This document shows positions 7,781-28,607 of a stretch of 32,000 bases of DNA, piece after piece (position 1 is the first letter of the stretch; each line of letters opens with the position of its first letter). The DNA comes from Methanosphaera stadtmanae DSM 3091 (GTDB lineage: Archaea; Methanobacteriota; Methanobacteria; Methanobacteriales; Methanobacteriaceae), in the NCBI RefSeq assembly GCF_000012545.1, contig NC_007681.1, positions 1,020,001-1,052,000 of the forward strand, given 5' to 3'. The notes beneath the pieces are model-generated. The model saw only the letters and a list, made by a program, of their open reading frames with translations. It did not search any database and was not told the DNA's origin. The position numbers were made by a program, and so were the translations under genes.

Positions 7781-10700
7781 TTAGCTTTTTACTACAGTTA
7801 TGGTACTATTTACATCGTTTCTATTGTATAATTTGTGTCCATATACACATGTGAATGTATAGTCTTGTGCTCTTGCATTTTCTGGTATTGTATAATCTAT
7901 TGTTACTAGTCCATCTTTTACTTCATGGTAAATTATATATCCCTCATTGTCTCTCATGGTTTTACCATTTACCTTGAATAGGACACGTCCTTCATTTACA
8001 TTAGCATCTTTTTCTGTTATTTTCACTGTTATTTTTATTGTTTGGCCTGGTTTTGCTGTTGTAGTGTTTGTTGTCATTGCCATTGTAGCTGTTTTTTTGG
8101 TTATGTTCATTGGTATTGTGTTGTTTGTTCTTGTTTGTTCATATGTGCTAGTTCCACCATAAACTACATTTAGTACTGATTTTATTTTAAACCAGTTTGC
8201 TGGTACTGTGTAGTTTTCTATCATTGCTATTCCATTTGTTACTGTTGTGTATATTATGTTTCCATTGGTGTCTTTTATTGTTTTTCCATTTACTTTGAAT
8301 ACTAAACGTCCTTCTGTTACAGGATTTCCATCTTCATCTGTTACTGTTGCTTTTAGATTGATTTTATCTCCTATTTGTGCATTTATTGGATCTATTGTTA
8401 CAGTAGTGCTGAGTTTATGTATATCCACGTTTATTGTTGTGTTTATTGCATTGTATGTTTCTGTTTCTTCATAGATGAATGTTAGGTTTTGATTAAAGTT
8501 TCCTCTGAAGATTTTAGTAAATATTCCTTTTCCATCAATTACATTGATTATTGCAAATGTGTTATTGTATTGGTCTATTACTGTTACTGTTCCATTTAAT
8601 GGATTTCCGTCTTCATCTGTTAGTGTTATTTGTATGTTTGTTTGTGTATTTGGTGTTGTTTTTACTGAGTCTACTTTGAGTATAGTATTTATTTTATCTA
8701 CGTTTACAGTTTGAGTAATTGTGTTTTCGTCATATTTACCTTCACCATCTCTATATGTTATTTGAATTGTATTTTCTCCATCTTTTGTTGGTGTGTAGTT
8801 GTATATAGCAATTCCATCTGTTAATGTTAATGTGGTTTCTTTCAAATAATTACCATTAATTATAACAATAACTGTACCATTTACGGCTTTATCCATCATT
8901 GAAGTAACATTTATCATTATTGGATATGTTTTACCCATTTTTATTTCTGATGGTATTGTTATGTTTATTTGTGTTTGATAGAATTCTTCTCCTATTGGAA
9001 AGTTATTTGATACGCTATTGCTTTTTCCAGTTTTTTTCACTGCATTATTACCTTGTGAGTCTATACTTTCAATATAATTCTCAGTTACTTTATTACGAAT
9101 ACCATTTATTATATCAATTACGGGAATACCATTGTTTTTAGCTTTAACAATTATTACGGAAGAAGAGATACTTACCCTAGTTGAATTTATGAATTTTACT
9201 GCAGTTGTTGGATTATCACTTTCTAGTTTTATGTTAAAATCATATAGAGTGATAAATTGTGCATTTATTATTTCGATTGCTGTTATATTATTTCCTTTTC
9301 CTTGAATATTATTATCTTCTATATATGGAGAGACATTAGTTAATGTGTTTCCTATAATTATTATTTTTGCAGGAGTATTATTATTTTCGTGATATATTAT
9401 ATTATTTTTTATAGTTACTGTTGAGTATATTTCTAGGCTTGTTTGTCTATCATCTGTGTTATGTATGTTTATTCCAGTCATGTTACTGTTTGTTGCATTT
9501 TCTGTGAAGATAATTGTTCCATTGTATATTGTGTAATTATTTGGATTTTCTATTATTACAGGATGATTAAAAATCATGTTTTTGTTAATTAAATCAGAAC
9601 CAAATTCTATCATGTTAATATTATCATTTAATGTTTGATTTGTAAAGTATTGATTATAATTGTTATTTGTTATTAGAACTCCAGGTTTGTTTTGATTCAT
9701 TGTGATATCTGTGGAATTTATTACATCTATTGTTAATTGTCCTTTTAAATCTTTTGTTTCTAAATAATTTTCAGTTATTGTTGCTTTATTTGAATTTTCT
9801 ATTATTATAAGAGGTATTTCAGTCTGATTTTCTGCTATTATATTATTTTTTGTAATTGATAAGTTTGTCGTGTTTTTGAATATACTTTGTATGGTGGTAT
9901 TTGTTAAGATGATATTTCTATTAATAGTTGAACTTTCACTATTTTCTATGTATATTGGAGTATTTTGTGTAGCATTCATTGTTATATTAGTGGAGGATAT
10001 TGATACTTTTTTATTGTTTACAAATATTGCTGTAGCATTATTTTTTGCATTTACTGTAATATCTGTGTTGGATACGTTTGTATTTATTAAGGCTATTATT
10101 TTTCCATTTTCTTCTGTTTTTGTTGTATTTACTGTGATGGTTCCCTTGGATATTGTTAAGGATCCTTCTGAGTATGTTGCTGTTGATACTTTAGTGTTGT
10201 CTTCTGAATTTATTTCTGGTGCATTTAGTGTTATATTTGTATTTATTATATTTGCTGTTGAATTATTATTTACATATATTGTCTGTGCTTGTTTTTCATT
10301 GTTGGTTTGTGTTATATTTGCATTATTAATGTTTACTTTTCCTGTCATAATGTTTATTATTGTTTTTCTATCATCTGTTATATTGAGTTTTAAATTGTTT
10401 AAGTTGCTTGTTTCTGTACTGTTTATTGTTATTGTTCCATTGTATATTGTGTAGTTTCTAGGGTTTTTTAATGTAATTGCATGGTTAAATATCATGTTTT
10501 TATTGTAAATATCAGATCCTATTGTTGTTTCTACTGTTTTATTAATATTGAATATTTGATTTACAAAATAGTCATTGTAATTATCATCTGTTAGAATTAT
10601 TATTTCTGGAATGTTGTTAGATAGAGTATTGTTTTTACTGTTTGTTTGGATAATTGTACTGTCTCCACCACGGAAATTATTACCATTGAGGTAGTTATTT

Positions 10701-13678
10701 ATTATTTTATTATTATTAGAATTAGTTAAATTCATTACATAATCGCTTTGTGTGGTAATGGTTATGTTGTCTATGGTATTGTTATTTGAGTTTTCCATGA
10801 TTATTGCAATATCATTTATATTTATTGTTGTGTTGGATACGTTTTCTGCTAGTCCTAAGTATGTGTTTGTAGTATTTACTAGTTTTAAGAAGTTTCCTTT
10901 AGTGTTATATAAGGAGTCTTTTTTCATAATGATGGATGTAATATTAGTATTTTTTGAATTGACTTGTTCTATAGCAACTATATCTGAATTAGTATTATTT
11001 AATGTAGAAACATATGTTAAAGTATTGAATATTTTTGTGTTATTACTATTTTTTGTTAGTATTTCTCTTGCATAATTACCTATTATCTTGTAATGGATAT
11101 AAGAATATGTAATATCTAAACATGAAACTTTTATATTATTACTATTTTCTAGAAATATGCCTATACTTTTATTAGAGGTTATTGTGGATGTTCCATAGGA
11201 TTTGGTGAAGGAATTGTTGTTATTATGCAATGCTAAAGTTCCGTTTGAGATTATTCCATATGCTATATTATTTGAGGTTATGGCTAGATTTTGTATAATT
11301 ATTGTATTATCTTTAGAATCTTGTAATTCTATTCCTTTTGCATTTTCTGAGGTGTGTATGTATATTTGATTTTGGAGAGTGTTTTTATTTGAATTTATTA
11401 ATTGATTTCCAATTGCATTTCTGTTTGTATTAATATAAATATAATTATTATCAAGATAATTTTTATTACTATTATTTAATATTATACCTGTTGAAGTTGT
11501 ATTAATTATATCACTGGTTGTTGTCATATTGATTTTATTGTTTGTTAGGATATTATTTGATGAGTTTATTTTTATACCTATGTTATTTGTTGTAGTATTT
11601 ATGTTAATCTTGTTTGATTCTATATTATTATCATTTTTATTTATTATAATACCAGTATAGGAATTAAATATGTTTGTATTTATATTATTGTTTCTTATAA
11701 GGTTATTTGTAGTATTAACAAGTATTCCATATTGATTATTATCATTATTATTAATGTTTATTTTTTGAATAATCATTGAAGCATTGTTTATTATATTAAT
11801 TGAACCATTTACAATGTAAATTCCATTTTTACTTGAAAGAAATGCTTTTATATTAGAAAAAGTTAAATCTTTATTTGTAATATTACCTGTAATAGTAATA
11901 ATACTTCCATTTTCAACAATATCTGTTTTAATTACACCATTATTATCAAAATAAGTACTATAATTATCATCAGTTAAATTAACATAACTACCAGTTACTG
12001 GAATATTATCTTTAATAATATTATTATCATTAGATGATATTGCCATATTACCAGTTAATACTTGTGAATATATTGTATTATTAATAATAATATTATTTTT
12101 AGAATTTGTATTTAATGTGATAGAATAAATATCGTTAGTTTTTATAATATTGTTAGTGATATTATTATTATCACCTGTTATAGCAATATATTTAGTTATG
12201 GTATTATTAGTTACAGTAGTATTTCCTTTAAGATACATTCCATAACCATTAGTTGTGAAGTTTATAATATTACCTTTTATTGTAGTGTTACGATTAATAG
12301 TTGAATATATAGCAAAAGTTGTACCAGTTGTTACACTAAGTGATCCAAATAAACTTGATGGTTGCATATCATTAAATGATGAATTATATATTTCATTTTT
12401 AAGTGTAGCATTATCTTTACCAGTTACATAAATACCAGTACTTTTATTGAAAATACAATTATCTACATATAAATTACCTTCACTTTGATAAATATCAGTT
12501 TGTTGGTTATTTATAAATGTAGAATTAATAATATTAGTTACAAGTCCACTAATACCATGAATATTAAAATAGTCTGCTCTACCAGTATTTGATGCAATTC
12601 CACTACCAAATTTATAAGTACTAGCAGCATTATAAGCTTTTCCATCTTTAATTGTACAATTAATAATGTCAATAATTTTATCATTAGTTATAGTACCCCA
12701 ACGAGCAATATTACCAATAAATTGACTGTTTAATACAATTGCAGTACCATTATTGTAAATACCCGCTCCAAAATTACCAGTAGATGAAGCTTTTCTATTT
12801 TTTTGGAAAATGCTATTATTCACAATGAGTGTAGAACCATTATTATTTCTAATACCTGCTCCTACTCCTGCAAGATTTTCAAGGAAATACACATTATCTA
12901 CTTCAAGATTACCATAATTATCAACAGTAGCAGTAGGATATAGACTTATACTATCTCCACCATTAGTACCATTACTTAACATATGTTGAATATTAAGATT
13001 TTTAATAATAATTTTACCAGTACCATTTGTAATATTCATACCCCAATTACCACCATAAATATTGTAATAATTAAAGTATGAATCATCACCCCATACACTA
13101 GCACCCGCAACTGTATAATTTACTTCTCCATCAATAATGGTTTTATTAATTCCATCTCCAATGAAGTTTATTTTATAATCTCCATTTACTGTAAGGTTAG
13201 TGTTTCCAACACCAGTATATGTACCTGTGGATATGTGTATATTGTAGGTGTTATCTTTAGTGGTTTGTGTTATTGCTTGATTGATTGTTTTATATGGTTT
13301 GTCAATTGATCCATCGTTTGTATCTGATCCTTTGTCATTGGATACGTAGTAGTTTATTTCTGATTCTTTTTTAAGTGTTTTATTGGTTGTTTTTATTTCT
13401 TCTTTATTTTTTTGTTTTTGTGTTGTAATTTCTTTTGTTTTTATTTCTTTTTTTGGAGTAATCTCTGTTTTAGTATCTTTAATAGTAGACTTTAATTCTT
13501 TATTATCATTGGTTATTATTTTTTCTTTATTATCTATTGTTTGTGATGTTGTCGTGTCTATTGTTTGTTTTTCTATTGAAGTGGTAGTTGTAGTGTTTGT
13601 GTCTGCTGCTGTTATTGTTGAAAGTCCTAGTATTAATACTATTAACAGTATTGAAGACAGTAGTATTTTATTCTTCAT
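7781..13678 (-). CDS. ALP-A: giant secreted Asn/Thr-rich adhesin-like protein (1965 aa). Signal peptide, T/K/E-rich stalk, parallel beta-helix with Pmp-like repeats, C-terminal Ig-like domain repeats
   Basis: Uninterrupted 5.9-kb ORF. The N-terminus MKNKILLSSILLIVLILGLSTITAADT is signal-peptide-like. GSDTNDGSIDKPYKTINQAI is a beta-helix N-cap motif. GVGAGIRNNNGS...NSIFQKN and FGAGIYNNGTA...NSQFIGN resemble the GGAI/FxxN polymorphic-membrane-protein repeat. The C-terminus carries repeated GxVxFKVNGKT...DG.A...YT Ig-like units. GGAGG and GTGAT lie upstream of the ATG. Confidence 0.88.
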   Translation of the reverse strand: MKNKILLSSILLIVLILGLSTITAADTNTTTTTSIEKQTIDTTTSQTIDNKEKIITNDNKELKSTIKDTKTEITPKKEIKTKEITTQKQKNKEEIKTTNKTLKKESEINYYVSNDKGSDTNDGSIDKPYKTINQAITQTTKDNTYNIHISTGTYTGVGNTNLTVNGDYKINFIGDGINKTIIDGEVNYTVAGASVWGDDSYFNYYNIYGGNWGMNITNGTGKIIIKNLNIQHMLSNGTNGGDSISLYPTATVDNYGNLEVDNVYFLENLAGVGAGIRNNNGSTLIVNNSIFQKNRKASSTGNFGAGIYNNGTAIVLNSQFIGNIARWGTITNDKIIDIINCTIKDGKAYNAASTYKFGSGIASNTGRADYFNIHGISGLVTNIINSTFINNQQTDIYQSEGNLYVDNCIFNKSTGIYVTGKDNATLKNEIYNSSFNDMQPSSLFGSLSVTTGTTFAIYSTINRNTTIKGNIINFTTNGYGMYLKGNTTVTNNTITKYIAITGDNNNITNNIIKTNDIYSITLNTNSKNNIIINNTIYSQVLTGNMAISSNDNNIIKDNIPVTGSYVNLTDDNYSTYFDNNGVIKTDIVENGSIITITGNITNKDLTFSNIKAFLSSKNGIYIVNGSINIINNASMIIQKININNNDNNQYGILVNTTNNLIRNNNINTNIFNSYTGIIINKNDNNIESNKININTTTNNIGIKINSSNNILTNNKINMTTTSDIINTTSTGIILNNSNKNYLDNNYIYINTNRNAIGNQLINSNKNTLQNQIYIHTSENAKGIELQDSKDNTIIIQNLAITSNNIAYGIISNGTLALHNNNNSFTKSYGTSTITSNKSIGIFLENSNNIKVSCLDITYSYIHYKIIGNYAREILTKNSNNTKIFNTLTYVSTLNNTNSDIVAIEQVNSKNTNITSIIMKKDSLYNTKGNFLKLVNTTNTYLGLAENVSNTTININDIAIIMENSNNNTIDNITITTQSDYVMNLTNSNNNKIINNYLNGNNFRGGDSTIIQTNSKNNTLSNNIPEIIILTDDNYNDYFVNQIFNINKTVETTIGSDIYNKNMIFNHAITLKNPRNYTIYNGTITINSTETSNLNNLKLNITDDRKTIINIMTGKVNINNANITQTNNEKQAQTIYVNNNSTANIINTNITLNAPEINSEDNTKVSTATYSEGSLTISKGTITVNTTKTEENGKIIALINTNVSNTDITVNAKNNATAIFVNNKKVSISSTNITMNATQNTPIYIENSESSTINRNIILTNTTIQSIFKNTTNLSITKNNIIAENQTEIPLIIIENSNKATITENYLETKDLKGQLTIDVINSTDITMNQNKPGVLITNNNYNQYFTNQTLNDNINMIEFGSDLINKNMIFNHPVIIENPNNYTIYNGTIIFTENATNSNMTGINIHNTDDRQTSLEIYSTVTIKNNIIYHENNNTPAKIIIIGNTLTNVSPYIEDNNIQGKGNNITAIEIINAQFITLYDFNIKLESDNPTTAVKFINSTRVSISSSVIIVKAKNNGIPVIDIINGIRNKVTENYIESIDSQGNNAVKKTGKSNSVSNNFPIGEEFYQTQINITIPSEIKMGKTYPIMINVTSMMDKAVNGTVIVIINGNYLKETTLTLTDGIAIYNYTPTKDGENTIQITYRDGEGKYDENTITQTVNVDKINTILKVDSVKTTPNTQTNIQITLTDEDGNPLNGTVTVIDQYNNTFAIINVIDGKGIFTKIFRGNFNQNLTFIYEETETYNAINTTINVDIHKLSTTVTIDPINAQIGDKINLKATVTDEDGNPVTEGRLVFKVNGKTIKDTNGNIIYTTVTNGIAMIENYTVPANWFKIKSVLNVVYGGTSTYEQTRTNNTIPMNITKKTATMAMTTNTTTAKPGQTIKITVKITEKDANVNEGRVLFKVNGKTMRDNEGYIIYHEVKDGLVTIDYTIPENARAQDYTFTCVYGHKLYNRNDVNSTITVVKS

Positions 13679-13780: not shown

Positions 13781-13802
13781 TAACTAAGTTTTATCTTAGT
13801 TA
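13781..13802 (-). promoter_or_regulatory. Conserved inverted repeat TAACTAAG-N6-CTTAGTTA in the ALP-A upstream leader
   Basis: AACTAAG at 13782-13788 and CTTAGTT at 13795-13801, an 8-bp stem when flanking bases are included. The same element occurs upstream of ALP-B and ALP-C. Confidence 0.45.
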
Positions 13803-13896: not shown

Positions 13897-13908
13897 GGGG
13901 GGGGGGGG
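13897..13908 (-). repeat. Homopolymeric tract G12 (C12 on the ALP coding strand), 218 nt upstream of the ALP-A ATG
   Basis: Counted directly: g at 13897-13908, flanked by a-runs. Confidence 0.95.
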
Positions 13909-14051: not shown

Positions 14052-17000
14052 TTAGTTTTTTACTACAGTGATTGTACTGTTTACATCGTTTCTATTGTAT
14101 AATTTGTTTCCATATACACATGTGAATGTATAGTCTTGTGCTCTTGCATTTTCTGGTATTGTGTATGTTATTGTTACTAGTCCATCTTTTACTTCATGGT
14201 AAATTATATATCCCTCATTATCTCTCATGGTTTTACCATTTACCTTGAATAGGACACGTCCTTCATTTACATTAGCATCTTTTTCTGTTATTTTCACTGT
14301 TATTTTTATTCTTTCTCCTGGTTTTGCTGTTGTAGTGTTTGTTGTCATTGTCATTGTTGCTGTTTTTTTGGTTATATTCATTGGTATTGTGTTGTTTGTT
14401 CTTGTTTGTTCATATGTGCTAGTTCCACCATAAACTACATTTAGTACTGATTTTATTTTAAACCAGTTTGCTGGTACTGTGTAGTTTTCTATCATTGCTA
14501 CTCCATCTTTTATTGTTGCGTATATGATGTTTCCATTAGCATCTTTTATTGTTTTACCATTTACTTTGAATACTAAACGTCCTTCTGTTACAGGATTTCC
14601 ATCTTCATCTGTTACTGTTGCTTTTAGATTGATTTTATCCCCTATTTGTGCATTTATTGGATCTATTATTACAGTAGTGCTGAGTTTATGTATATCCACG
14701 TTTATTGTTGTGTTTATGGTGTTATATGTTTCTGTTCCGTCATAGATGAATGTTAGGTTTTGATTGAAGTTTCCTCTGAAGATTTTAGTAAATGTTCCTT
14801 TTCCATCAATTACATTGATTATTGCAAATGTGTTATTATATTGATCTATTACTGTTACTGTTCCATTTATTGGGTTTTCAAATTCATCTGTTAGTGTTAT
14901 TGGTATGTTTATACGTGTATTTGGTATTCCTTTTACTGAGTCTACTTTGAGTATAGCATTTATTTTATTTACTGTTATAGATTGAGTAATAGTGTTGTTT
15001 TCATATTTACCTGTTGGGTCATTGTATGTTATTTTTATTGTGGTTTCACCATCTTTTGTTGGTGTGTAGTTGTATGTGGCTATTCCATCTGTTAATGTTA
15101 AATTAGTTTCTTTATCTCCAATATTTAGTATAACAGTTCCATTTACTGGTTTGTCTAGCATACTTGTTACATTTATTGTAATTGGATATGTTTTACCTAC
15201 TTTTAATTCTGAAGGTAGTGTTGTTATGTTCATTTGTGTTCTATAGTTTCCATTTGTTGGTTTATTATTGTTTATACTAGCTGTTCCTGTTCCAATTTTT
15301 TTTACTGCATCGTTACCACATACATCTTCACTTTCAATGTAATTATTAGTTATGACATTAATTGTAGGATTGATTATTTCTATTATTGGTGTATCATAGT
15401 TTTTGGTTTTAACAATGACTATATTATTTGTAAGTCTTACTCCTTTGGAATTTATGAATCGTACTGCTGTTATTGGATTTTCACTTTCTAATGTAATATT
15501 ATTTGTAGTTATTCGTATTATAGCTGCAGTTTTACTGTTTGTTACTTCTATTGCTGTGATATTGGATCCTTTTCCATTAATGATATTACTTACTGAAGTT
15601 ATTATTTTTAGGTTGTTTAAGGTTATTATTGTTACATTTTTACCTATTGTTGTAATATTATTCCTACTAAATCCTACACTTCCTGTATTATTAACAATTA
15701 TTGTTTTTGCTGGATTATTAGTATTTTCTTGATATAATGTATTTTTTATTATATTTATTGAATTTGAGTATATTTCAAGGCTTGTTTGTCTATCATCTGT
15801 GTTATGTATGTTTATTCCAGTCATATTACTGTTTGTTGCATTTTTTGTAAAAATAATAGTTCCATTGTATACTGTGTAATTATTTGGATTCTCTATTATT
15901 ACAGGGTGATTGAAAATCATGCTTTTGTTAATTAAATCAGAACCAAATTCTATTATAGTTATATCTGAATTTAGTGTTTGATTTGTAAAGTACTGATTAT
16001 AATTTTCATTTGTTATTAGAACTCCTGGCCTGTTAAATGACATTGTAATATTTGTTGAATTTATTACTTTAACTGCATTATTTCCTTTTAAATCACTTGT
16101 CTCTAGATAATTTCCTATAATTCTTATATTATTTGAGTTTTCAATTATTATTAAATGAGTTTTACTTTGATTTTCTACTTTTATAATATTATTTGTGATA
16201 TTTATCACAGATCTGTTTTCAATTATATTTTGAGTGTTATTATTACTTATAAATATATTTTCATTTATTCTTGTTTCTATGAATGATGAAATATAGTTTT
16301 TTAAATATAATGGAGTATTGTTTGTACCATTTGTAATTATTTTATTATTCTCTAATGTTAAATATCCCTTAGTTTGTATTATTCCTGTTGTATATGGAGA
16401 ATTAAGAGTTATATTATTATCACGTAAAGATGTATGATTTTCACTGATTATTCCTATTGTTTGGTTTTTACTGTATAAATTAAAATTATTTGATCCTATA
16501 TTACTTACAGCAGTATCGTTAAAAATATTTTTTATAAATGCTATCGCATTGTTTTCAGAATTCATTGTGATATTAGACAAATATATAGATCCAATATTTA
16601 TCATTGCAATTATTTTTCCATTTTGTACAGTTTTTGTTGTATTTACTGTAATATTTCCCCTATATATTGTTAAGGATCCTTCTGAGTATGCTGCTGTTGA
16701 TACTTTGGTGTTATCTTCTGAATTTATTTCTGGTGCATTTAATGTTATATTTATATTCATTATATTTACTTTTGAATTTGTATTCACATATATTGTCTGT
16801 GCCTGATTTTCATTATTAATTTGTGTTATATTTGCATTATTAATATTTAGAGTTCCTGCCATAACATTTATAACTGTTTTTCTATCATCTGTTATGTTGA
16901 GTTTTAGAATATTTAAATTACTTGTTTCTGTACTGTTTATGGTTATTGTTCCATTGTATATTGTGTATTTTCTTGGATTTTTTAATGTAATTGCATTGTT

Positions 17001-20000
17001 AAATGTCATATTTTTATTGTAAATGTCTGATCCAAGTATTAATTCTACTGTTTTATTTATTATCCATGTTTGATTTATAAAGTATTGGTTATAATTATCA
17101 TTTGTTAAAATTATTACATTAGGTGTGTTGTTTTGTATGATATTATTTTGACTATTTGTTTGTATAACTGCACTATCTCCACCATAGAAGTTATTACCAT
17201 TGAGGTAATTGTTTATTATAGTATTATTGTTTGAGTTTGTTAAGTTTATAGTATAATCTGTATTGGTGTTTATGGTTATATTATCTATAATATTATTATC
17301 TGAATTTTCTAGTATAATTGCAATATTAACTATATTTATGTTAGCACTTGAAACGTTATTTCTTGAACCAAGATATGTATTTGTAGTATTTACTAGTTTT
17401 AAAAAGGTACTGTTGTAATTTACATAGCTTCCTGACGAAATATACTTCTGCATCCCAATAGCAGTTATATTAGTATTTTCTGAGTTAATTTGTTCTATTC
17501 CTATTAAATCAGGCATTTTATCACTTATTTCTTTTGTAATATGAATGCTTAAATAAAATATCTCTGTATTATTTGTATTTTTTGTTAATATTGTTCTTAC
17601 AGTATTACCTCTTGTAACATAATTCATTGAAGTTGATCTTGAAGATATATTAGTATTTGTTGTATTTTCTAATAATGTACCTATAATAGTATCTGCTGTT
17701 ATGTCTATGTTATTTGAAATAGTATTATTTTTATTTAATGCTTTTTCTCCAGTTATTATAGTTCCATATCCTGTATTATTACTTATTATGTTAATATAAT
17801 TATTTATTTGATTGTTTTGTGAGTTTATTAATTCTACTCCTTTTGCATTTTCTGATGCATATACATATATATTATCATTAATTATATTATTGTCTGATTT
17901 TATTAATTTTTCACCAATAGCATTAATATTACTCATCATAAGTATTCGATTACCAGATAGTATGTTATTATTTGTATTGGATTTTAAGTTTAATCCAATT
18001 ATTGTAGTATCTGTTATTTTAGAAATAGTTGTTGTATTGATTTTGTTGGATAATAAATAGTTATAAGATGATTCAATTGAAATACCTGTATTATTTGTTG
18101 TACTTGTAATATTAATAACATTTTTTTCTAAGTTATTATTATCTTTTTTTATTATAATAGCTTCAATAGGTTTATTAGAATCTATCATTATGTTATTGTA
18201 TGTTATAAGGTTATTATCACTATCAATAAGTAAACCTACTTTATTATTATTTATGATGTTTGTATTGTTAATAATCAAAGAAGCATTATTAATTATACTA
18301 ATTGAACCATTTTGTATGTAAATGTTTTTCTTAGATGAAAGAAATGCTTTTATATTAGAAAAAGTTAAATCTTTATTTGTAATATTACCTGTAATAGTAA
18401 TAATACTTCCATTTTCAACAACATCTGTTCTAATTATGCCCTTATCATCAAAATAAGTATTATAATTATTATTAGTTAAATTAATATAAATACCAGTTTC
18501 TGGAATATTATCCTTAATAATATTGTTATTATTATTGGATGATATAGCTTTATCACCAGTAAATACCTGAGAGTATATTGTGTTATTAATTATAGTATTA
18601 TTTTTAGAATTTCTATTTAATGTGATAGAATAAATATCGTTAGTTTTTATAATATTGTTAGTGATATTATTATTATCACCTGTTATAGCAATATATTTAG
18701 TTATGGTATTATTAGTTACAGTAGTATTTCCTTTAAGATACATTCCATAACCATTAGTTGTGAAGTTTATAATATTACCTTTTATTGTAGTGTTACGATT
18801 AACAGTTGAATATATAGCAAAAGTTGTACCAGTTGTTACACTAAGTGATCCAAATAAACTTGATGGTTGCATATCATTAAATGATGAATTATATATTTCA
18901 TTTTTAAGTGTAGCATTATCTTTACCAGTTACATAAATACCAGTACTTTTATTGAAAATACAATTATCTACATATAAATTACCTTCACTTTGATAAATAT
19001 CAGTTTGTTGGTTATTTATAAATGTAGAATTAATAACATTAGTTACAAGTCCACTAATACCATAGGGATTAAAATAGTCAGATCCACCAGTATTTGATGC
19101 AATACCACTACCAAATTTAAAAGTACTAGCAGCATTATAAGCTTTTCCATCTTTAATTGTACAATTAATAATATCAATAATTTTATCATTGGTTATAGTA
19201 CCCCAACGAGCAATATTACCAATAAATTGACTGTTTAATACAATTGCAGTACCATTATTATAAATACCTGCTCCATAATTACCAGTAGAAGATCCTTTTC
19301 TGTTTCCTTCAAATATTGAATTATTTACAAGTAGTGTTGAACCATTATTACTTCTGATACCTGCTCCTACTCCTGCGAGATTTTCAAAGAAATACACATT
19401 ATCTACTTCAAGATTACCATAATTATCAACAGTAGCAGTAGGATATAAACTTATACTACTTCCACCCCCCGTACCATTACTTAACATATGTTGAATATTC
19501 ATATTTTTAATAGTAATAATACCAGTACCTTTAGTAATATTCATACCCCAATTACCTTTAGTAATTATATATGAATTAAAATAAGAATCATCACCCCATA
19601 CACTAGCACCACCAATAGTATAATTTACTTCTCCATCAATGATTGTCTTATTAATTCCATCTCCTATGAAGTTTATTTTATAATCCCCATTTACTGTAAG
19701 GTTGGTGTTTCCAACACCAGTATATGTACCTGTGGATATGTGTATGTTGTATATGTTATCTTTAGTGGTTTGTGTTATTGCTTGATTGATTGTTTTATAT
19801 GGTTTGTCAATTGATCCATCGTTTGTATCTGATCCTTTGTCATTGGATACGTAGTAGTTTATTTCTGATTCTTTTTTAAGTGTTTTTATTTCTTCTTTAT
19901 TTTTTTGGTTTTGTGTTGTAATTTCTTTTGTTTTTATTTCTTTTTTTGGAGTAATCTCTGTTTTAGTATCTTTTATATTGGATTTTACTTCTTTATTATC

Positions 20001-20165
20001 ATTGACTATTACTTTTTCTTTATTATCTATTGTTTGTGATGTTGTCGTGTCTATTGTTTGTTTTTCTATTGAAGTGGTAGTTGTTGTGTCTGTTGCTGTT
20101 ATTGTTGAAAGTCCAAGTATTAATACTATTAACAGTATTGAAGATAGTAGTATTTTATTCTTCAT
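14052..20165 (-). CDS. ALP-B: giant secreted Asn/Thr-rich adhesin-like protein (2037 aa), paralog of ALP-A
   Basis: Uninterrupted 6.1-kb ORF. The N-terminal ~640 aa and C-terminal ~330 aa are almost identical to ALP-A, and the central part alternates conserved and divergent blocks. It has the same signal peptide, beta-helix cap, Pmp-like repeats and Ig-like C-terminal repeats. Confidence 0.88.
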   Translation of the reverse strand: MKNKILLSSILLIVLILGLSTITATDTTTTTSIEKQTIDTTTSQTIDNKEKVIVNDNKEVKSNIKDTKTEITPKKEIKTKEITTQNQKNKEEIKTLKKESEINYYVSNDKGSDTNDGSIDKPYKTINQAITQTTKDNIYNIHISTGTYTGVGNTNLTVNGDYKINFIGDGINKTIIDGEVNYTIGGASVWGDDSYFNSYIITKGNWGMNITKGTGIITIKNMNIQHMLSNGTGGGSSISLYPTATVDNYGNLEVDNVYFFENLAGVGAGIRSNNGSTLLVNNSIFEGNRKGSSTGNYGAGIYNNGTAIVLNSQFIGNIARWGTITNDKIIDIINCTIKDGKAYNAASTFKFGSGIASNTGGSDYFNPYGISGLVTNVINSTFINNQQTDIYQSEGNLYVDNCIFNKSTGIYVTGKDNATLKNEIYNSSFNDMQPSSLFGSLSVTTGTTFAIYSTVNRNTTIKGNIINFTTNGYGMYLKGNTTVTNNTITKYIAITGDNNNITNNIIKTNDIYSITLNRNSKNNTIINNTIYSQVFTGDKAISSNNNNNIIKDNIPETGIYINLTNNNYNTYFDDKGIIRTDVVENGSIITITGNITNKDLTFSNIKAFLSSKKNIYIQNGSISIINNASLIINNTNIINNNKVGLLIDSDNNLITYNNIMIDSNKPIEAIIIKKDNNNLEKNVINITSTTNNTGISIESSYNYLLSNKINTTTISKITDTTIIGLNLKSNTNNNILSGNRILMMSNINAIGEKLIKSDNNIINDNIYVYASENAKGVELINSQNNQINNYINIISNNTGYGTIITGEKALNKNNTISNNIDITADTIIGTLLENTTNTNISSRSTSMNYVTRGNTVRTILTKNTNNTEIFYLSIHITKEISDKMPDLIGIEQINSENTNITAIGMQKYISSGSYVNYNSTFLKLVNTTNTYLGSRNNVSSANINIVNIAIILENSDNNIIDNITINTNTDYTINLTNSNNNTIINNYLNGNNFYGGDSAVIQTNSQNNIIQNNTPNVIILTNDNYNQYFINQTWIINKTVELILGSDIYNKNMTFNNAITLKNPRKYTIYNGTITINSTETSNLNILKLNITDDRKTVINVMAGTLNINNANITQINNENQAQTIYVNTNSKVNIMNINITLNAPEINSEDNTKVSTAAYSEGSLTIYRGNITVNTTKTVQNGKIIAMINIGSIYLSNITMNSENNAIAFIKNIFNDTAVSNIGSNNFNLYSKNQTIGIISENHTSLRDNNITLNSPYTTGIIQTKGYLTLENNKIITNGTNNTPLYLKNYISSFIETRINENIFISNNNTQNIIENRSVINITNNIIKVENQSKTHLIIIENSNNIRIIGNYLETSDLKGNNAVKVINSTNITMSFNRPGVLITNENYNQYFTNQTLNSDITIIEFGSDLINKSMIFNHPVIIENPNNYTVYNGTIIFTKNATNSNMTGINIHNTDDRQTSLEIYSNSINIIKNTLYQENTNNPAKTIIVNNTGSVGFSRNNITTIGKNVTIITLNNLKIITSVSNIINGKGSNITAIEVTNSKTAAIIRITTNNITLESENPITAVRFINSKGVRLTNNIVIVKTKNYDTPIIEIINPTINVITNNYIESEDVCGNDAVKKIGTGTASINNNKPTNGNYRTQMNITTLPSELKVGKTYPITINVTSMLDKPVNGTVILNIGDKETNLTLTDGIATYNYTPTKDGETTIKITYNDPTGKYENNTITQSITVNKINAILKVDSVKGIPNTRINIPITLTDEFENPINGTVTVIDQYNNTFAIINVIDGKGTFTKIFRGNFNQNLTFIYDGTETYNTINTTINVDIHKLSTTVIIDPINAQIGDKINLKATVTDEDGNPVTEGRLVFKVNGKTIKDANGNIIYATIKDGVAMIENYTVPANWFKIKSVLNVVYGGTSTYEQTRTNNTIPMNITKKTATMTMTTNTTTAKPGERIKITVKITEKDANVNEGRVLFKVNGKTMRDNEGYIIYHEVKDGLVTITYTIPENARAQDYTFTCVYGNKLYNRNDVNSTITVVKN

Positions 20166-20276
20166 ATTGAATCACGTTCCTCCTATATTTTTTATAAGAA
20201 AAATAATCTAATTTTTCCTTATTTTCATTAAAAATTTCTAATTAAAATAAAATTGATTTTAACTAAAATTTGATTT

Positions 20277-20298
20277 TAACTAAGTTTTATCTTAGTTA
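20277..20298 (-). promoter_or_regulatory. Conserved inverted repeat TAACTAAG-N6-CTTAGTTA in the ALP-B upstream leader
   Basis: AACTAAG at 20278-20284 and CTTAGTT at 20291-20297. Confidence 0.45.
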
Positions 20299-20388
20299 TT
20301 ATTAATTTAAGAAGGATTATATTTAAATTTAATCTAATTAAAGTAATATTAAATAGTTTTAGAAAATAGATATAATTTATTAAATAAA

Positions 20389-20397
20389 GGGGGGGGG
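20389..20397 (-). repeat. Homopolymeric tract G9 (C9 on the coding strand), 223 nt upstream of the ALP-B ATG
   Basis: Counted directly: g at 20389-20397. Confidence 0.95.
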
Positions 20398-20415
20398 AAA
20401 AATATATTGTTTTAT

Positions 20416-20423
20416 TTTATAAA
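20416..20423 (-). promoter_or_regulatory. TATA-like box TTTATAAA, 18 nt from the poly-C tract (candidate ALP-B promoter)
   Basis: Identical to the ALP-A arrangement. Confidence 0.35.
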
Positions 20424-20540
20424 AATATTTCACGTGTTTATTTATAAAATAAAATAATATTTATCATTTCTTTTATTAATAACTCTTATATTTTTTGAAT
20501 TATTAAAATAATTAAATCTTTTTATTGGATAATTTAATCT

Positions 20541-23500
20541 TTAGTTTTTTACAACAACTACTGTACTGTTTACATCGTTTCTATTGTATAATTTGTTTCC
20601 ATATACACATGTGAATGTGTAGTCTTGTGCTCTTGCATTTTCTGGTATTGTGTATGTTATTGTTACTAGTCCATCTTTTACTTCATGGTAAATTATATAT
20701 CCCTCATTGTCTCTCATGGTTTTACCATTTACCTTGAATAGGACACGTCCTTCATTTACATTAGTATCTTTTTCTGTTATTTTCACTGTTATTTTTATTG
20801 TTTGTCCTGGTTTTGCTGTTGTAGTGTTTGTTGTCATTGTCATTGTAGCTGTTTTTTTGGTTATATTCATTGGTATTGTATTGTTTGTTCTTGTTTGTTC
20901 ATATGTGCTAGTTCCACCATAAACTACATTTAGTACTGATTTTATTTTAAACCAGTTTGCTGGTACTGTGTAGTTTTCTATTGTTGCTATTCCATCTTTT
21001 ACTGTTGCATAGATAATATTTCCATTGGTGTCTTTTATTGTTTTTCCATTTATTTTAAATACTACTCGGCCTGTGTTTATTGGATTTCCATATATGTCGT
21101 ATACATGTGCTTTTAAGTTGATAGTATCTCCTACTTGTGCATTTATTGTTTCTAATACTATTTTTGTGTTGATTATTGCTCTTGTATTGTTTTCTAGATA
21201 TGTGTCATAGTTTGTATTTATTGTTCTTGTTCCTGTTTTTGTACTTGTTGTTAGTTTATTGTTTGTTATTGTCGTGTTTTTTATTGAGTTTTCGGTGTTT
21301 ATTGTTAAATCATGTTGTCCTATATCTTTTATTATTATTGTATTGTTGTCTATTTGTGTGTTATGTGAGTTTTGTTGTATTTGTATTCCTGTGTTTGCTG
21401 GTCTTATTTCTTCTACTATATCATTTATTTTTATGTTACTGTTTCCATATAGTATCATTTCATTGTTTATTATTGTATTATCTTCACTGTGTGCTAGTCC
21501 TATTCCCATTGTATAGTTTCCATTTCCAAGTATTGTATTGTTGTTTATTGTTGTATTTGATGTTTGATATATTTCCATTCCATATATTACTGATGAGTTA
21601 AGTTGTATGTTATTGTTTGTGATTGTTATGTTGTTTGTTCTGCCTCCACCCATACTTGTTGTTATTATTCCATATGCTAATGGTTCATTATCATCTGTAA
21701 ATGTTGTTGTATTATAGCATGTTCCTGTTATATTGTTTCCTGTTATTGTACAATTGGTTGCTTTATTTCCCATTTGTATTCCATTAACATATCTGTGTCC
21801 TGTTACATGAATATTGTTATCTTTAATTATTGTATTATTTACACGGTCAAGTGTATTTATTCCATAATTAAATCTTCCTCCTGTTACTGTTACATTGTTG
21901 TTTATTATGAGTATGTTGTTACTTTTTCCTGGTGCTGTTATTCCTTCTATTGTACTGTAGAGGTTATCATCAGGATTTGTACTATTATATACTTTAACAT
22001 TATTTTTTGATATTATATTATTTTCTCCACCAACAGATAATATTCCCTGTGTATTTGCTATAGATGTTCCACTTCCATATGTAATAGTTAATGCTGGACC
22101 ATATACTTTTACTGTATTATTTGATATAAGTATGTTACTTCCACCTGTATTTGCTATTGCTGCTGTTTTACCATTTGTGTTATATGTGTAGATTGTATTG
22201 TTTATTATTTTATTATTGTTTCCTGCTGATTTTATGGTGTATTCAGTTGTATCTGTATTGTTAATTTTCATGTTTTTAATTGTTATATTTACATCATCAA
22301 GTTCAAAGCTTGTATTTGTAAATGTAGCATTTTCACCATTTATTATTATGCCTGGTGTTGTTATGCTTATTTGTCCTTTATTTATGAAGTCTCCTTTAAA
22401 TATGATATTAGTATCTTCATCAACACCTATTAATTCATTGTTAAATATGTAACTCTCATAGTTTTCTGGTGTAATTGTTAAGTATTGGTGTTGTGATAAT
22501 TTAAGTACTAGTATGTTAGTAGTTTTAGATGTTATTGTTGGCTTTGCATAAAGAATAATATTATCAGTTGTGTTTCTTGTAATTTCAGTACTAAGAGTAT
22601 CTTCTATTTTATACAAATTTTTTCCTATATAAAATGCATATTTTGTTTTATTAAGTATATCTTTATCATAACTTTCTGGATTTTTTAATATGATACTACC
22701 ATTTATTTTAGCAGTTTCATTAACAAATACTTTACCAGGATTATTTAATGTAAGATTACTAAATGCTATTGTACAATTATCATAAGAATTATTTTCAATA
22801 ATGGTTCTTGTACTATCATTTGTCACATTTATAAATAATGTATCATTAGCACATAAAACATTTTTAAATGTGTTATTTACAAAGGTAGTATTTAAATTAC
22901 TTCCACCATTTATAAAAACAGATCCTGCAAAACCACTAGCATAACTGTTTGTGAAAGTATTATTTTCTATTAAACAGTTACTATAGATTGTCATGGAAAG
23001 ATCTGCTCCAGAACCAGAATATCTACCATCAAAATAATATTGAGGCATATACTGTGCTTTAACACTACTTATATTATTATCTTTAAAAATACAATTAGTT
23101 AATGTTAAATTTAGAGCATCGTTTCCACCAATTGCAGCTCCACCACTCATAGCCCAAGAACTATTAAATTGAATATAATTATTTTCGAAAATAGTATTAT
23201 TTATAAGAGAATACCCTCCAGCCAAATAAAGAGCTGCTCCATAACAATTACCAATTTCATATTGGTTTGTAACTACACAACTTTTGTTTCTAAAAGTACA
23301 ATTATCTATAGTAGTATGATTGCTTGAAGATATAGATACACCACTACCACCATTAGTGAAAGTAGAATTATATATATTTATAATATTTAATGCATTAACT
23401 GTAATATCTTTATTATTATTATCAAAAAGACTATTAGTAACATTTAAATTAGATGTTCCGTATCTATTAAATATATTTTTAATTATATTCACGGTAAATC

Positions 23501-25100
23501 TACTGTTATTTTTAAAAATACAATTATCTATATTAAAATTCAAGGTAATATCAACTTTAGGGTCTATATGTGAATAAATACATGATATGTTATTATTACT
23601 CATAGTAGTATTAGTAATAGTTAAATTACCATTAGTATATATTACATATACATAACCTATTGATTTAGCACTATTATTAGTTAAAGTAGAATTAATAATA
23701 ATTAAATTACCGCCCTCGTTATGTAATAATCCAGCAGGACCACCCCAATTTCTATCATCATAAATATCAGACATGGTACAATTAATAATAGTTAAATTAC
23801 CATAATTAGATAAGGTAGTATTAAGTATAGAGTTAATAATAGTTAAATTACCATAATTATACCTACTGCCTGATAAAGTAATATTATTTAATGTATAATT
23901 ACCATTATAAGTATCTATATACTTGATAATATCGGTTTTATTAGTAATTATAATACCTTTTCCACTTATTAATGCATTACTACCTAATATGGTATCATCA
24001 CTAATAGTTAAATTACCATTACTATACATAGTTGTATTTAATGTACAATTATTCAAAGTTAAATTACCATTATTTGTTCTTGAAGTTTTTATTTCAAAAT
24101 TATTTAATGTATAATTACCTTTATATGTTTGATAATAATTTATTATGTTTGTTTTATTGGTAATTATAATACCTTTTCCACTTATTAATGCATTACTACC
24201 TAATATGGTATCATCACTAATAGTTAAATTACCATTACTATACATAGTTGTATTTAATGTACAATTATTCAAAGTTAAATTACCTCTATTTTGCATCATC
24301 TTAGCATTTAATGTACAATTATTTAGAGTTAAATTACCATTATTTGTTCTTGAAGTTTTTATTTCAAAATTATTTAATGTATAATTGCCATTATATGTTC
24401 GATAATAATTTATTATGTTTGTTTTATTGGTAATTACAGTTCCTTCTTCAATTAGTGTGTTTTCTTTAATTATACAATTATCATCAATAATTATGTAATT
24501 AGCACGAATACTAGAATCAACAGTACAATTATGTAAAGTTAAATTCTTTGCATATATAAATTTTGTTAATATACTGTCATTAAAAGTAAGATTATAATTA
24601 TACATATTAAATTCAAAATCAATAGTTTGATTATTTCCATTAATTGTTACATCTTTTAGATAAGAACCACAAGAAATCCTCTCCTCGGAACTATAATTTC
24701 CGGGTTCTAAATTAATAATCCATTCATAAGAACTGCTTTTTTGAGATATTTCACTAAAAACCTTTTCTATTTCAGTAAAATTATTCACAGTTTTTTCTAC
24801 TGGTGTTGTTTTTAATGTTTTTGTTTTTAATGTTTTATTAGTTGTTACAACTTCTTTAGTTATGTCTTGTTTAGGAGTAATTTCTTTTTTAGTATCTTTT
24901 ATACTGGACTTTACTTCTTTAGTTATGTCTTGTTTTTCTTTATAATCAGTGTTAGTAGGAGTGTTAGTTGTTGGTGTCTGTTTTTCTATGATATTAGTAG
25001 TTGTTGGTGTTGTTGTATTTGTGTCTGTTGCAGATATAGCTGAAAGTCCTAGTAATAATACTATTAATATTATTGAAGATATTAATATCTTATTCTTCAT
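20541..25100 (-). CDS. ALP-C: giant secreted Asn/Thr-rich adhesin-like protein (1519 aa from ATG 25100). Distinct N-terminal beta-helix region; C-terminal 206 aa shared with ALP-A and ALP-B
   Basis: Uninterrupted 4.6-kb ORF. MKNKILISSIILIVLLLGLSAISATDT is signal-peptide-like and homologous to the A/B start. The track start at 25109 is the GTG within the GTGAT SD-like element. Pmp-like motifs include YGAALYLAGG...NNTIFENN, SGGAAIGG...TNCIFKDN and GFAGSVFINGG...NNTFKN. The C-terminal Ig-like module is near-identical to A and B. Confidence 0.88.
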   Translation of the reverse strand: MKNKILISSIILIVLLLGLSAISATDTNTTTPTTTNIIEKQTPTTNTPTNTDYKEKQDITKEVKSSIKDTKKEITPKQDITKEVVTTNKTLKTKTLKTTPVEKTVNNFTEIEKVFSEISQKSSSYEWIINLEPGNYSSEERISCGSYLKDVTINGNNQTIDFEFNMYNYNLTFNDSILTKFIYAKNLTLHNCTVDSSIRANYIIIDDNCIIKENTLIEEGTVITNKTNIINYYRTYNGNYTLNNFEIKTSRTNNGNLTLNNCTLNAKMMQNRGNLTLNNCTLNTTMYSNGNLTISDDTILGSNALISGKGIIITNKTNIINYYQTYKGNYTLNNFEIKTSRTNNGNLTLNNCTLNTTMYSNGNLTISDDTILGSNALISGKGIIITNKTDIIKYIDTYNGNYTLNNITLSGSRYNYGNLTIINSILNTTLSNYGNLTIINCTMSDIYDDRNWGGPAGLLHNEGGNLIIINSTLTNNSAKSIGYVYVIYTNGNLTITNTTMSNNNISCIYSHIDPKVDITLNFNIDNCIFKNNSRFTVNIIKNIFNRYGTSNLNVTNSLFDNNNKDITVNALNIINIYNSTFTNGGSGVSISSSNHTTIDNCTFRNKSCVVTNQYEIGNCYGAALYLAGGYSLINNTIFENNYIQFNSSWAMSGGAAIGGNDALNLTLTNCIFKDNNISSVKAQYMPQYYFDGRYSGSGADLSMTIYSNCLIENNTFTNSYASGFAGSVFINGGSNLNTTFVNNTFKNVLCANDTLFINVTNDSTRTIIENNSYDNCTIAFSNLTLNNPGKVFVNETAKINGSIILKNPESYDKDILNKTKYAFYIGKNLYKIEDTLSTEITRNTTDNIILYAKPTITSKTTNILVLKLSQHQYLTITPENYESYIFNNELIGVDEDTNIIFKGDFINKGQISITTPGIIINGENATFTNTSFELDDVNITIKNMKINNTDTTEYTIKSAGNNNKIINNTIYTYNTNGKTAAIANTGGSNILISNNTVKVYGPALTITYGSGTSIANTQGILSVGGENNIISKNNVKVYNSTNPDDNLYSTIEGITAPGKSNNILIINNNVTVTGGRFNYGINTLDRVNNTIIKDNNIHVTGHRYVNGIQMGNKATNCTITGNNITGTCYNTTTFTDDNEPLAYGIITTSMGGGRTNNITITNNNIQLNSSVIYGMEIYQTSNTTINNNTILGNGNYTMGIGLAHSEDNTIINNEMILYGNSNIKINDIVEEIRPANTGIQIQQNSHNTQIDNNTIIIKDIGQHDLTINTENSIKNTTITNNKLTTSTKTGTRTINTNYDTYLENNTRAIINTKIVLETINAQVGDTINLKAHVYDIYGNPINTGRVVFKINGKTIKDTNGNIIYATVKDGIATIENYTVPANWFKIKSVLNVVYGGTSTYEQTRTNNTIPMNITKKTATMTMTTNTTTAKPGQTIKITVKITEKDTNVNEGRVLFKVNGKTMRDNEGYIIYHEVKDGLVTITYTIPENARAQDYTFTCVYGNKLYNRNDVNSTVVVVKN
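23944..24429 (-). repeat. In-frame 216-bp (72-aa) tandem repeat inside ALP-C, with a nested 54-bp duplication in one copy
   Basis: 23944-24159 and 24160-24429 align, with the first 126 nt identical. The upper copy carries an extra 54 nt encoding NAKMMQNRGNLTLNNCTL. A degenerate third copy flanks each side. It is also visible as the duplicated antisense ORFs 23923-24114 and 24145-24384. Confidence 0.9.
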
Positions 25101-25141: not shown

Positions 25142-25161
25142 AACTAAGATTTATCTTAGTT
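25142..25161 (-). promoter_or_regulatory. Conserved inverted repeat AACTAAG-N6-CTTAGTT in the ALP-C upstream leader
   Basis: AACTAAG at 25142-25148 and CTTAGTT at 25155-25161, 42-61 nt upstream of the ATG. The surrounding sequence has diverged from the A/B copies. Confidence 0.5.
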
Positions 25162-25254
25162 GTTACTTAATTTAAAAATAATTATAATTATATTTAACTA
25201 GATTTAACTAACTAAAATCAATTTCTAAACATACAAATTATAATTCTATTAAAA

Positions 25255-25263
25255 GGGGGGGGG
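25255..25263 (-). repeat. Homopolymeric tract G9 (C9 on the coding strand), 154 nt upstream of the ALP-C ATG
   Basis: Counted directly: g at 25255-25263. Confidence 0.95.
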
Positions 25264-25281
25264 AAAATTCCATTGTTTTTA

Positions 25282-25289
25282 TCTATAAA
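25282..25289 (-). promoter_or_regulatory. TATA-like box TTTATAGA, 18 nt from the poly-C tract (candidate ALP-C promoter)
   Basis: Coding strand reads TATAATTTTTATAGATAAAAACAATGGAATTTT-C9. An ungapped alignment with the A/B distal region gives about 32/46 identical positions and keeps both the box and the 18-nt spacing. Confidence 0.35.
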
Positions 25290-25620
25290 AATTATACTGG
25301 AGTTTATTTTTTAAATAAAACCTTAATTATCTTTACTTTTAAATATATGATTATATAATTATAATTTAATTTATTATGAAAATACATGATGATTTATTTA
25401 ATCCATATTTTTTCTACTGTTTGTTTATTGACATATATATTATATACTTAAAAAAAGAGTGTTCTTATAAGAACTGCAATATTTATTTTAAAGTGGTTTT
25501 CAACAAGATTTTCTTGTTATGTTTATAATTATCTAAAATATGTTGAATATTTTGTATAATATAAATCATGAAAATATACAAATTAATAGAGTAAAATAAG
25601 TCTCATACTCATTAATAAAT

Positions 25621-27640: not shown

Positions 27641-28607
27641 ATGATAAGAAAAAAGATACTTAAAAATATTGAAAATGAATATATAACAGAATCAGATTTA
27701 TTAAAAAAATTAGATATTACCCATGAAAAATTAAAACACATCTCTAGATTTAAAAGAAGCAGGTTATTTAATTAAAATTGATGCTGAAAAAGGTTATAAA
27801 TTAGAAAGTATACCTGATATTCTTGAACCATTTGAAATTAGTAGAGGATTAGATACAAACTATATAGGTCACAGTATTCATTTATACAAAGAACTAGAAT
27901 CTACAAATACCACTGCTAAAAAATTCGTTGAACAAGATGCAAAAGAAGGAACTATAATCATAGCAGAAAGTCAAACAGCAGGAAGAACAAGAAAACATGA
28001 TGGATGGGTATCACCAGAAGGTGGTATTTACATGACCATGATACTAAGACCTGAAGTATCACTAAAAGAAGCTTCAAAACTCACAATAGTAACAGGTGTT
28101 GCAATAGCAAAAACCTTACATGATGTATTTGATATTGATGTAGGTATTAAATGGCCTAATGACTTACTAATTGGAAATAAAAAGATTTGTGGAATATTAA
28201 CAGAAGCTGTAACAGATTATGATGAAATCAAAGCAGTACTTGTAGGTATAGGAGTAGATGTTAACTTTGATGAAGATAAACTTCCAGATAAACTAAAAGA
28301 CGTTGCAACATCTGTTAAAGCAGAACTTGATACGGAATATAATAGGGCAGAAATAATAAAAGAATTCTTTAAAGTATTTGAAGAATTATATGAACAATAT
28401 AAAAAACATGACTTCAAATATATTGTATCTGAGTGGAGAAGATTATCTACAACAACAGGTAATCGTGTGAAAGTATACACTGGACGAAAAGTAATTTATG
28501 CTGATGCAGTGGGTATTACAAATGAGGGTGCATTGATTATTGAACATGAAGATGGAAAATTAGAAAAAGTAATTTCTGGAGAAATAGAAATAATAGATGA
28601 TGAATAA
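27641..28607 (+). pseudogene. birA: Biotin-[acetyl-CoA-carboxylase] ligase / BirA with N-terminal HTH, interrupted by an apparent +1 frameshift near 27743-27746
   Basis: The frame starting at ATG 27641 (GTGAT SD 4 nt upstream) gives MIRKKILKNIENEYITESDLLKKLDITHEKLKHIS and stops at 27773. The next frame is open from 27735 and gives SLDLKEAGYLIKIDAEKGYKLESIPDIL...AESQTAGRTRKHDGWVSPEGGIYMTMILRPE..., running into the track ORF 28032-28607. The joined product is about 322 aa, the length of class II BirA. The first ATG of the second frame (28032) lies after the GRxRxxxxW biotin-binding motif. Confidence 0.8.

Follow-up and report, generated by a model that had tools for sequence, protein, structure and literature searches.

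The run of nine G residues standing between two genes for adhesin-like proteins (ALPs) in the human-gut archaeon Methanosphaera stadtmanae DSM 3091 raised the question of whether it is a slippage-prone switch, set independently for the downstream gene ALP-B, as the initial annotation of this DNA had proposed, or a repeat of no consequence for expression. The ALPs of this strain are large, Asn/Thr-rich surface proteins of adhesin-like type, and the window, i.e., the whole 32-kb stretch of DNA that was analyzed, carries three of their genes (ALP-A, ALP-B and ALP-C). The sequence check agreed with the positions first given: exactly nine consecutive G occupy 20389-20397 of the + strand, and the distances of 223 nt from the ALP-B start codon (ATG at 20165, minus strand) and 143 nt from the ALP-C stop codon (20541-20543) were both correct. 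Since the ALP genes are on the minus strand, the tract is functionally a poly-C tract (C9) on the coding strand.

Within the 32-kb window, only three G/C runs of at least 7 nt were found (C12, C9 and C9 on the coding strand), one 5' of each ALP gene, and G runs of at least 8 nt gave 9 overlapping matches against 0.05 expected from shuffles; the sequence of the window has a GC content of 27%. The sibling tract of ALP-A, a C12 plus TTTC (G12 on the + strand), was located at 13897-13908, and that of ALP-C, a C9 (G9 on the + strand) in a cassette diverged by about 25%, at 25255-25263, both on the minus strand like the ALP-B tract. All three occupy the identical position of a shared cassette upstream of their genes. 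The ALP-B tract was confirmed to be real and non-random, far from chance. The ALP-C tract lies 154 nt 5' of its gene, in a cassette (25142-25319) directly downstream of pycA.

The coding sequence of ALP-B (14052-20165, minus strand) is 91% identical to that of ALP-A (ORF 7781-13678, minus strand) over the first 300 aa; ALP-A was identical to ABC57299, and the exact look-up of ALP-B matched no record. ALP-C (20541-25100, minus strand, ATG at 25100, 1519 aa) corresponds to ABC57301 and is 39% identical to ALP-A. Pfam assigned an Ig-like domain to ALP-A and a beta-helix to ALP-C. The N-terminus of ALP-B is signal-peptide-like, in keeping with a surface protein, and a Shine-Dalgarno-like GGAGGA is present at 20178-20183 (minus strand). 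Surface adhesin-like genes are the class that is typically under repeat-driven control in bacteria (PMC1891110, PMC11868660). The neighbors of the array in the window are archaeal ribosomal proteins and pyruvate carboxylase subunit A, and exact look-ups identified PycA as ABC57302 and L3 as ABC57297.

Two further observations were made in the coding regions of the window. A shorter run, G6 on the ALP-B coding strand (C6 on the + strand), is present at 19465-19470 within the coding sequence, in GGTACGGGGGGTGG, a Gly-rich motif; it is short, is conserved in other strains (L132:3963-3968, L145:1522-1527) and is a possible frameshift site. In comparison with each of five metagenome strains, a gene for a BirA-like biotin-protein ligase of 322 aa (27641-28607, + strand) shows in the window two single-base deletions at about 27735-27755 (CAACAT>CACAT and CTCCTAG>CTCTAG). 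They shift the reading frame in its N-terminal part, so that the gene is either a pseudogene particular to this strain or affected by mistakes in the sequence of 2006.

The ALP-B tract itself is intergenic. On the coding strand of the intergenic region no ORF of at least 20 aa was found, so the tract is not a coding frameshift switch, and a leader-peptide or coding frameshift mechanism was rejected.

The cassette around the tract was defined by aligning the three upstream regions and 26 cassettes from related contigs. It spans about 176 nt and consists of a 56-nt upstream block, a short T-run, the C tract, a second T-run, and then a stretch of about 110 nt terminated by a conserved hairpin. 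The upstream block (20398-20453, minus strand), which contains TTTTTATA[A/G]A..AAAACAAT, aligned without gaps to that of the ALP-C cassette with 75% identity, and the downstream block (20278-20388, minus strand), a putative 5' leader, was 77% identical to its ALP-C counterpart, compared with 57% upstream and 60% downstream in shuffled controls. The ALP-C cassette is thus about 25% diverged from the A/B type, yet it has kept an uninterrupted tract and the same 18-nt TATA-to-tract spacing, and the tract therefore predates the A/B duplication.

The inverted repeat AACTAAG-ATAAAA-CTTAGTT at the cassette 3' end was found in all three cassettes (20278-20297, minus strand, for ALP-B; 13782-13801 and 25142-25161 for the siblings) and has 7-bp arms. 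Its loop varies across strains (ATAAAA, ATAAAT, TTAAAT, ATTTCT, ATAAAG) while the arms are kept, and the one A>G change observed in an arm would be G.U-compatible; the repeat may form a hairpin in RNA or be bound by a dimeric protein. Another inverted repeat, around CACGTG (20404-20460), has 20-nt arms (20404-20423 and 20441-20460) that are 95% complementary and separated by a 17-nt spacer. Two TTTATAAA boxes are thereby inverted relative to each other a short way upstream of the tract; the repeat belongs to the A/B-type cassettes, the A unit included, and is much weaker in the C-type.

The 5' boundary of the cassette, at -56 from the tract, was marked by contigs L025 and L134, whose upstream context is unrelated beyond it. 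Instead of PycA, the cassette is preceded by IMP cyclohydrolase in L134 and by ribosomal protein S27e in L143, and in L133 (3733-4000) the hairpin is followed by another leader and another ALP gene. Being joined to differing upstream genes and to a different ALP gene, the module behaves as a portable promoter-plus-leader cassette, putatively that of this ALP subfamily. The boundaries, from -56 to the hairpin, fit what a compact promoter and leader would look like.

The flanks of the ALP-B tract had been described as identical to those of the ALP-A copy, with a tract that differed by 3 nt. Identity held for the + strand flank AAAAATATATTG and for the TTTATAAA box that lies 18 nt away at 20416-20423, both of which are the same in the A copy, and failed for the gene-proximal flank; the length difference had to be corrected to 7 nt, as A carries C12+TTTC and B carries C9. 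By alignment, the intergenic units A and B (373 and 375 nt) differ by 10 mismatches and 18 gap columns. The duplication takes in roughly 500 nt at the 3' ends of the upstream genes, and it also extends into the downstream genes at their 5' ends. The last 500 nt or so of ALP-C are duplicated at the 3' end of ALP-B, and the repeat unit is therefore a gene 3' end, the intergenic cassette and a gene 5' end. A second length polymorphism between the two units was observed in the copy number of the direct repeat TTAGTTAAAATCAA (20241-20275), with two copies in most A/B-type cassettes, the B leader among them, and one in the A leader of this strain.

Tract length was compared between strains using contigs from human-gut metagenomes that carry identical or near-identical PycA, the downstream methyltransferase, or ALP-A homologues. 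The strains compared were >99.5% identical and, relative to the window, carried 12-31 substitutions over 6.9 kb; only the hybrid-assembly contig L003 was more divergent. The hybrid long-read "opera" contigs (L001, L003, L131, L132, L143 and L144) were left out of the length counts because their homopolymers are unreliable; housekeeping genes of L144 are frameshifted, which is typical of long-read error. In the window and the short-read assembly consensus, where an error of 1 in each length is possible, the C-type site (n = 16) displayed C9 in five cases, C10 in nine and C11 in two, and the A/B-type sites (n = 8) had lengths of 9, 9, 10, 10, 11, 11, 11 and 12. The tract was uninterrupted in all of the roughly 24 reliable alleles, and the C9 of ALP-B, like the sibling C12 and C9, lies within the range of about 7-9 or more in which an uninterrupted G/C run is unstable. 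Lengths also differ within one genome, namely 12/9/9 in DSM 3091 and 10 and 11 in L005. The flanking T-runs vary too (T3-5, Cn, T3-4; 17-20 nt in total), and much smaller length variation was found in A/T runs of 8-9 nt nearby.

Length polymorphism between close strains, as is characteristic of simple sequence repeat (SSR) contingency loci, was thus present at the level of assembly consensus lengths. These lengths showed that replication slippage or an equivalent process has changed the tract between close strains and between copies. An invariant length among strains would have spoken against a switch, and the lengths varied. The proposed slippage-prone nature of the tract was borne out by ranges of 9-11 and 9-12 among strains of >99.5% identity, and the unequal lengths within single genomes fit, and lend support to, tracts that would be set independently for each gene.

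Archaeal core promoters contain a TATA box (box A, about TTTATATA) and an A-rich BRE upstream of it, and the archaeal RNA polymerase starts about 22-27 nt downstream of the TATA box, usually at a purine after a pyrimidine. The cassette was scanned for box A with the classical methanogen consensus AAANNTTTATATA, and a putative TATA box with BRE, as in a TBP/TFB promoter, was found against this consensus. The best box-A match in the unit was AAATATTTTTATA (10/11), which lies -33 to -21 relative to the tract; a match of at least 9/11 that recurs at the same offset in all three cassettes was found only at -31 to -19. The box-A/TATA-like element AAATATTTTTATAAA occupies 20416-20430 (minus strand), and its TTTATAAA core ends 18 nt before the tract; this promoter call is set in very AT-rich sequence, in which TATA-like strings are common. 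The A/B type alone has an alternative box-A candidate, AAATTTAAATATA (9/11), located 67-86 nt past the tract on its downstream side, and as box A it would place the transcription start at the hairpin. The cassette boundary at -56 fits a compact promoter that would start near the tract.

The tract, which is not in an ORF, thus lies 18 nt downstream of the conserved TATA-like box and across the predicted start, which the box-A scan placed at positions +2 to +6 of the tract, the 3rd to 7th C, in all three cassettes. No purine was found in the predicted start window, which falls in a pyrimidine-only stretch of 17-20 nt (T5 C9 T3), so the usual archaeal start-site pattern is lacking there; a pyrimidine-only start region is unusual among archaeal promoters. 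The nearest downstream purine is 31 nt from the TATA-like box in B and 38 nt in A. On its upstream side the tract always begins 17-19 nt from the TATA-like box; an expansion therefore displaces downstream sequence only, and the bacterial model of a variable spacer between promoter elements does not transfer directly; a different mechanism is needed. As the host is an archaeon, bacterial -35/-10 spacer logic is inapplicable, and a scan for sigma-70 promoters and intrinsic terminators, irrelevant to an archaeon, gave matches at shuffle level.

What has been described looks like a candidate SSR contingency locus in an archaeal TBP/TFB promoter. We give an even chance to the reading that the tract is a hypermutable poly-C SSR in a shared cassette whose length changes would affect ALP-B expression. 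Such changes would alter expression heritably and stochastically, independently of ALP-A and ALP-C, and phase-type or rheostat-type variation would be the outcome. Because the tract starts 18 nt past the TATA-like box and the start is expected at about 22-25 nt, both the predicted start and the initially transcribed region are covered by the tract. Its length may therefore set the base at +1 and the number of C residues that open the transcript, the proneness to slippage or abortive cycling at initiation on a G template, and how far the conserved leader and hairpin lie from the TATA box and start; productive transcription would be tuned by these effects in combination. Should initiation require a purine, the spacing between the box and that purine would depend on tract length. 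The more specific version, in which a poly-C spanning the start site would act, unlike the bacterial spacer model, as an archaeal form of SSR phase variation that sets the 5' oligo-C and slippage or abortive initiation, so that each adhesin-like gene would be switched or dialled independently, is put forward tentatively and is rather unlikely.

The tract could instead have arisen once, been copied with the duplicated unit, and vary like any long G/C homopolymer with no effect on expression. We regard this account as possible, though on the unlikely side. It is consistent with the A and B units being near-identical recent duplicates that reach into both flanking genes, by which the existence of the B tract needs no separate selection. 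The spacing from AAAACAAT to TTTATTTAATAA across the tract was 17-24 nt, a range of 7 nt with no preferred value; the absence of a preferred spacing is also expected of a neutral tract, and the A/T runs nearby show some length polymorphism too. However, a neutral C-run in a 27% GC genome should decay, while all of the reliable alleles, about 24, were uninterrupted; the tract was kept at the same offset from the TATA-like box despite about 25% divergence of the flanks; and all three long G/C runs of the window sit at one cassette position.

The distribution of the tract bears on the same account. In more distant ALP homologues (P0010 and P0014; N-termini 45-50% identical), no G/C run of at least 6 nt was found in 5.6-20.6 kb per locus, so the tract is not a general ALP feature. 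In the sister species, Candidatus Methanosphaera massiliense, which has a near-identical L3, the methyltransferase and the ribosomal operon come immediately after PycA (L155-L159, 8807-9077), and neither an ALP array nor a G/C run of at least 6 nt was present in 21 kb; the array, tracts included, is therefore an insertion specific to the M. stadtmanae lineage. Both the ALP genes that do without such a tract and the restriction of the array to one lineage agree with neutral carriage. Among species-representative genomes, where the window region is probably masked, a scan for the motif plus C6 gave 4 bacterial chance matches and no other exact-motif copy, and patterns of the ALP N-terminal peptide gave 600 matches, none of which was confirmed. 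In a metagenome-wide scan with the cassette motif TTTTTATARAWWAAAACAAT, L025 was the only real one among the matches listed, the rest being chance matches in AT-rich environmental DNA.

The array itself was rearranged between strains. Between pycA and the ribosomal operon it comprises 1 to 3 or more genes by strain (L146, L133, L002, L004, L134, L143), and its neighbors vary: IMP cyclohydrolase, ALP and the r-protein operon are adjacent in L134, rpS27e, ALPs and argininosuccinate lyase in L143, and pycA, ALP and the lyase in L002/L148. The same ALP cassettes with different neighbors imply inversions or translocations via recombination between ALP loci, at two or three chromosomal sites.

The length of a transcribed tract might also act after transcription, by setting its pairing with the GGAGG site, a G-rich small RNA or a poly(C)-binding protein, and thereby grade translation or stability. 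The predicted start would put part of the tract at the mRNA 5' end, GGAGG is the only G-rich element of the leader, and the U/C run pairs with the GGAGG region in the minimum-free-energy folds of B and C. A length-variable leader homopolymer has a precedent in H. pylori tlpB and its small RNA RepG (PMC8295292). Such pairing is, however, trivially expected where an AU-rich RNA has a single patch rich in C and another rich in G; it is missing from the minimum-free-energy fold of the A leader, and the pairing U-run may lie upstream of the start. The fold z-scores were not significant (-0.6, -1.2 and -0.5), so the pairing in leader folds is not evidence, and anti-Shine-Dalgarno pairing by the C-run was rejected although it appears in the folds. 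Rfam and tRNA scans of the sequence gave nothing, and no partner RNA was found. Post-transcriptional tuning is therefore judged improbable.

That the tract and its flanks are mainly or merely a crossover point at which ALP cassettes are deleted, duplicated and reshuffled, with no control of expression, is very improbable. In its favor, the cassette of L146 (7363-8010) is a chimera of a C-type upstream part and an A-type downstream part, joined between AAAACAAT and the tract, and L146 has one ALP gene in place of three; the region is therefore a site of recombination as well. ALP copies at the locus range from 1 to 3 or more, with flanking genes that differ among strains. A crossover at the tract would be expected in any case, however, since no other stretch of identity between the two cassette types is as long, and this account explains neither the retention of a homopolymer, as opposed to some other conserved sequence, nor its length variation.

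The preferred reading, in which tract length would affect ALP-B expression, has counterparts among bacterial systems. The C-stretch of the Bordetella fim genes, reportedly the subject of earlier work by Willems et al. in 1990, is the closest documented analogue. In B. pertussis and B. bronchiseptica, the promoters of fim2, fim3, fimX and fimN carry a poly-C of about 7-19 nt, the length of which affects transcript abundance (PMC1891110). As here, the poly-C is part of a conserved element of paralogous surface-adhesin genes, with one tract each and a strain-polymorphic length. The difference lies in the promoter: the Bordetella tract spaces the BvgA activator site from the -10 box of a sigma-70 promoter, whereas the M. 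stadtmanae tract is 18 nt past the TATA-like box of a candidate TBP/TFB promoter and over the predicted start.

In Mycoplasma hyorhinis, the tandem vlp surface-protein genes each have a poly-A between the -35 and -10 elements of the promoter, and ON/OFF switching has been displayed experimentally. Both loci are tandem arrays of surface genes with conserved 5' regions and a homopolymer length set per gene; vlp differs in its poly-A, its bacterial promoter and its demonstrated switching, as opposed to a poly-C in an archaeal cassette with proposed switching. Helicobacter pylori provides the poly-T "rheostat" of sabA and the leader G-repeat of tlpB, which is targeted by the RepG small RNA (PMC2715451, PMC8295292). 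These resemble the present tract as length-variable homopolymers beside a promoter or in a 5' leader; graded expression of a host-interaction gene, as against all-or-none control, is a property of the H. pylori loci, and the bacterial RNA polymerase and the small-RNA partners set them apart. For the start region itself, a parallel is reiterative transcription (E. coli pyrBI/codBA/upp and B. subtilis pyrG), in which a homopolymer at the start site makes the polymerase slip and alters output. The position at the start is shared, here as a prediction, but those tracts are 3-4 nt long, fixed in length and NTP-pool-responsive, and are neither hypermutable nor archaeal.

In a literature search that included a term search of a 2026 ALP preprint and had the 2006 genome paper outside its scope, no such tracts were found described in Methanosphaera, Methanobrevibacter or any archaeon. 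The regulation of the dozens of giant adhesin-like proteins of human-gut methanogens was named an open question in 2024 (PMC11532034), and a 2025 review of phase variation notes that more has yet to be learned of how phase-variable loci are distributed across archaea (PMC11868660). Should the tracts indeed set expression, they would rank as an early candidate, in an archaeal promoter, for a contingency locus driven by a repeat. They would offer a simple genetic handle on surface variation and strain individuality, and might also bear on the immune, phage or partner-cell interactions of Methanosphaera in the gut.
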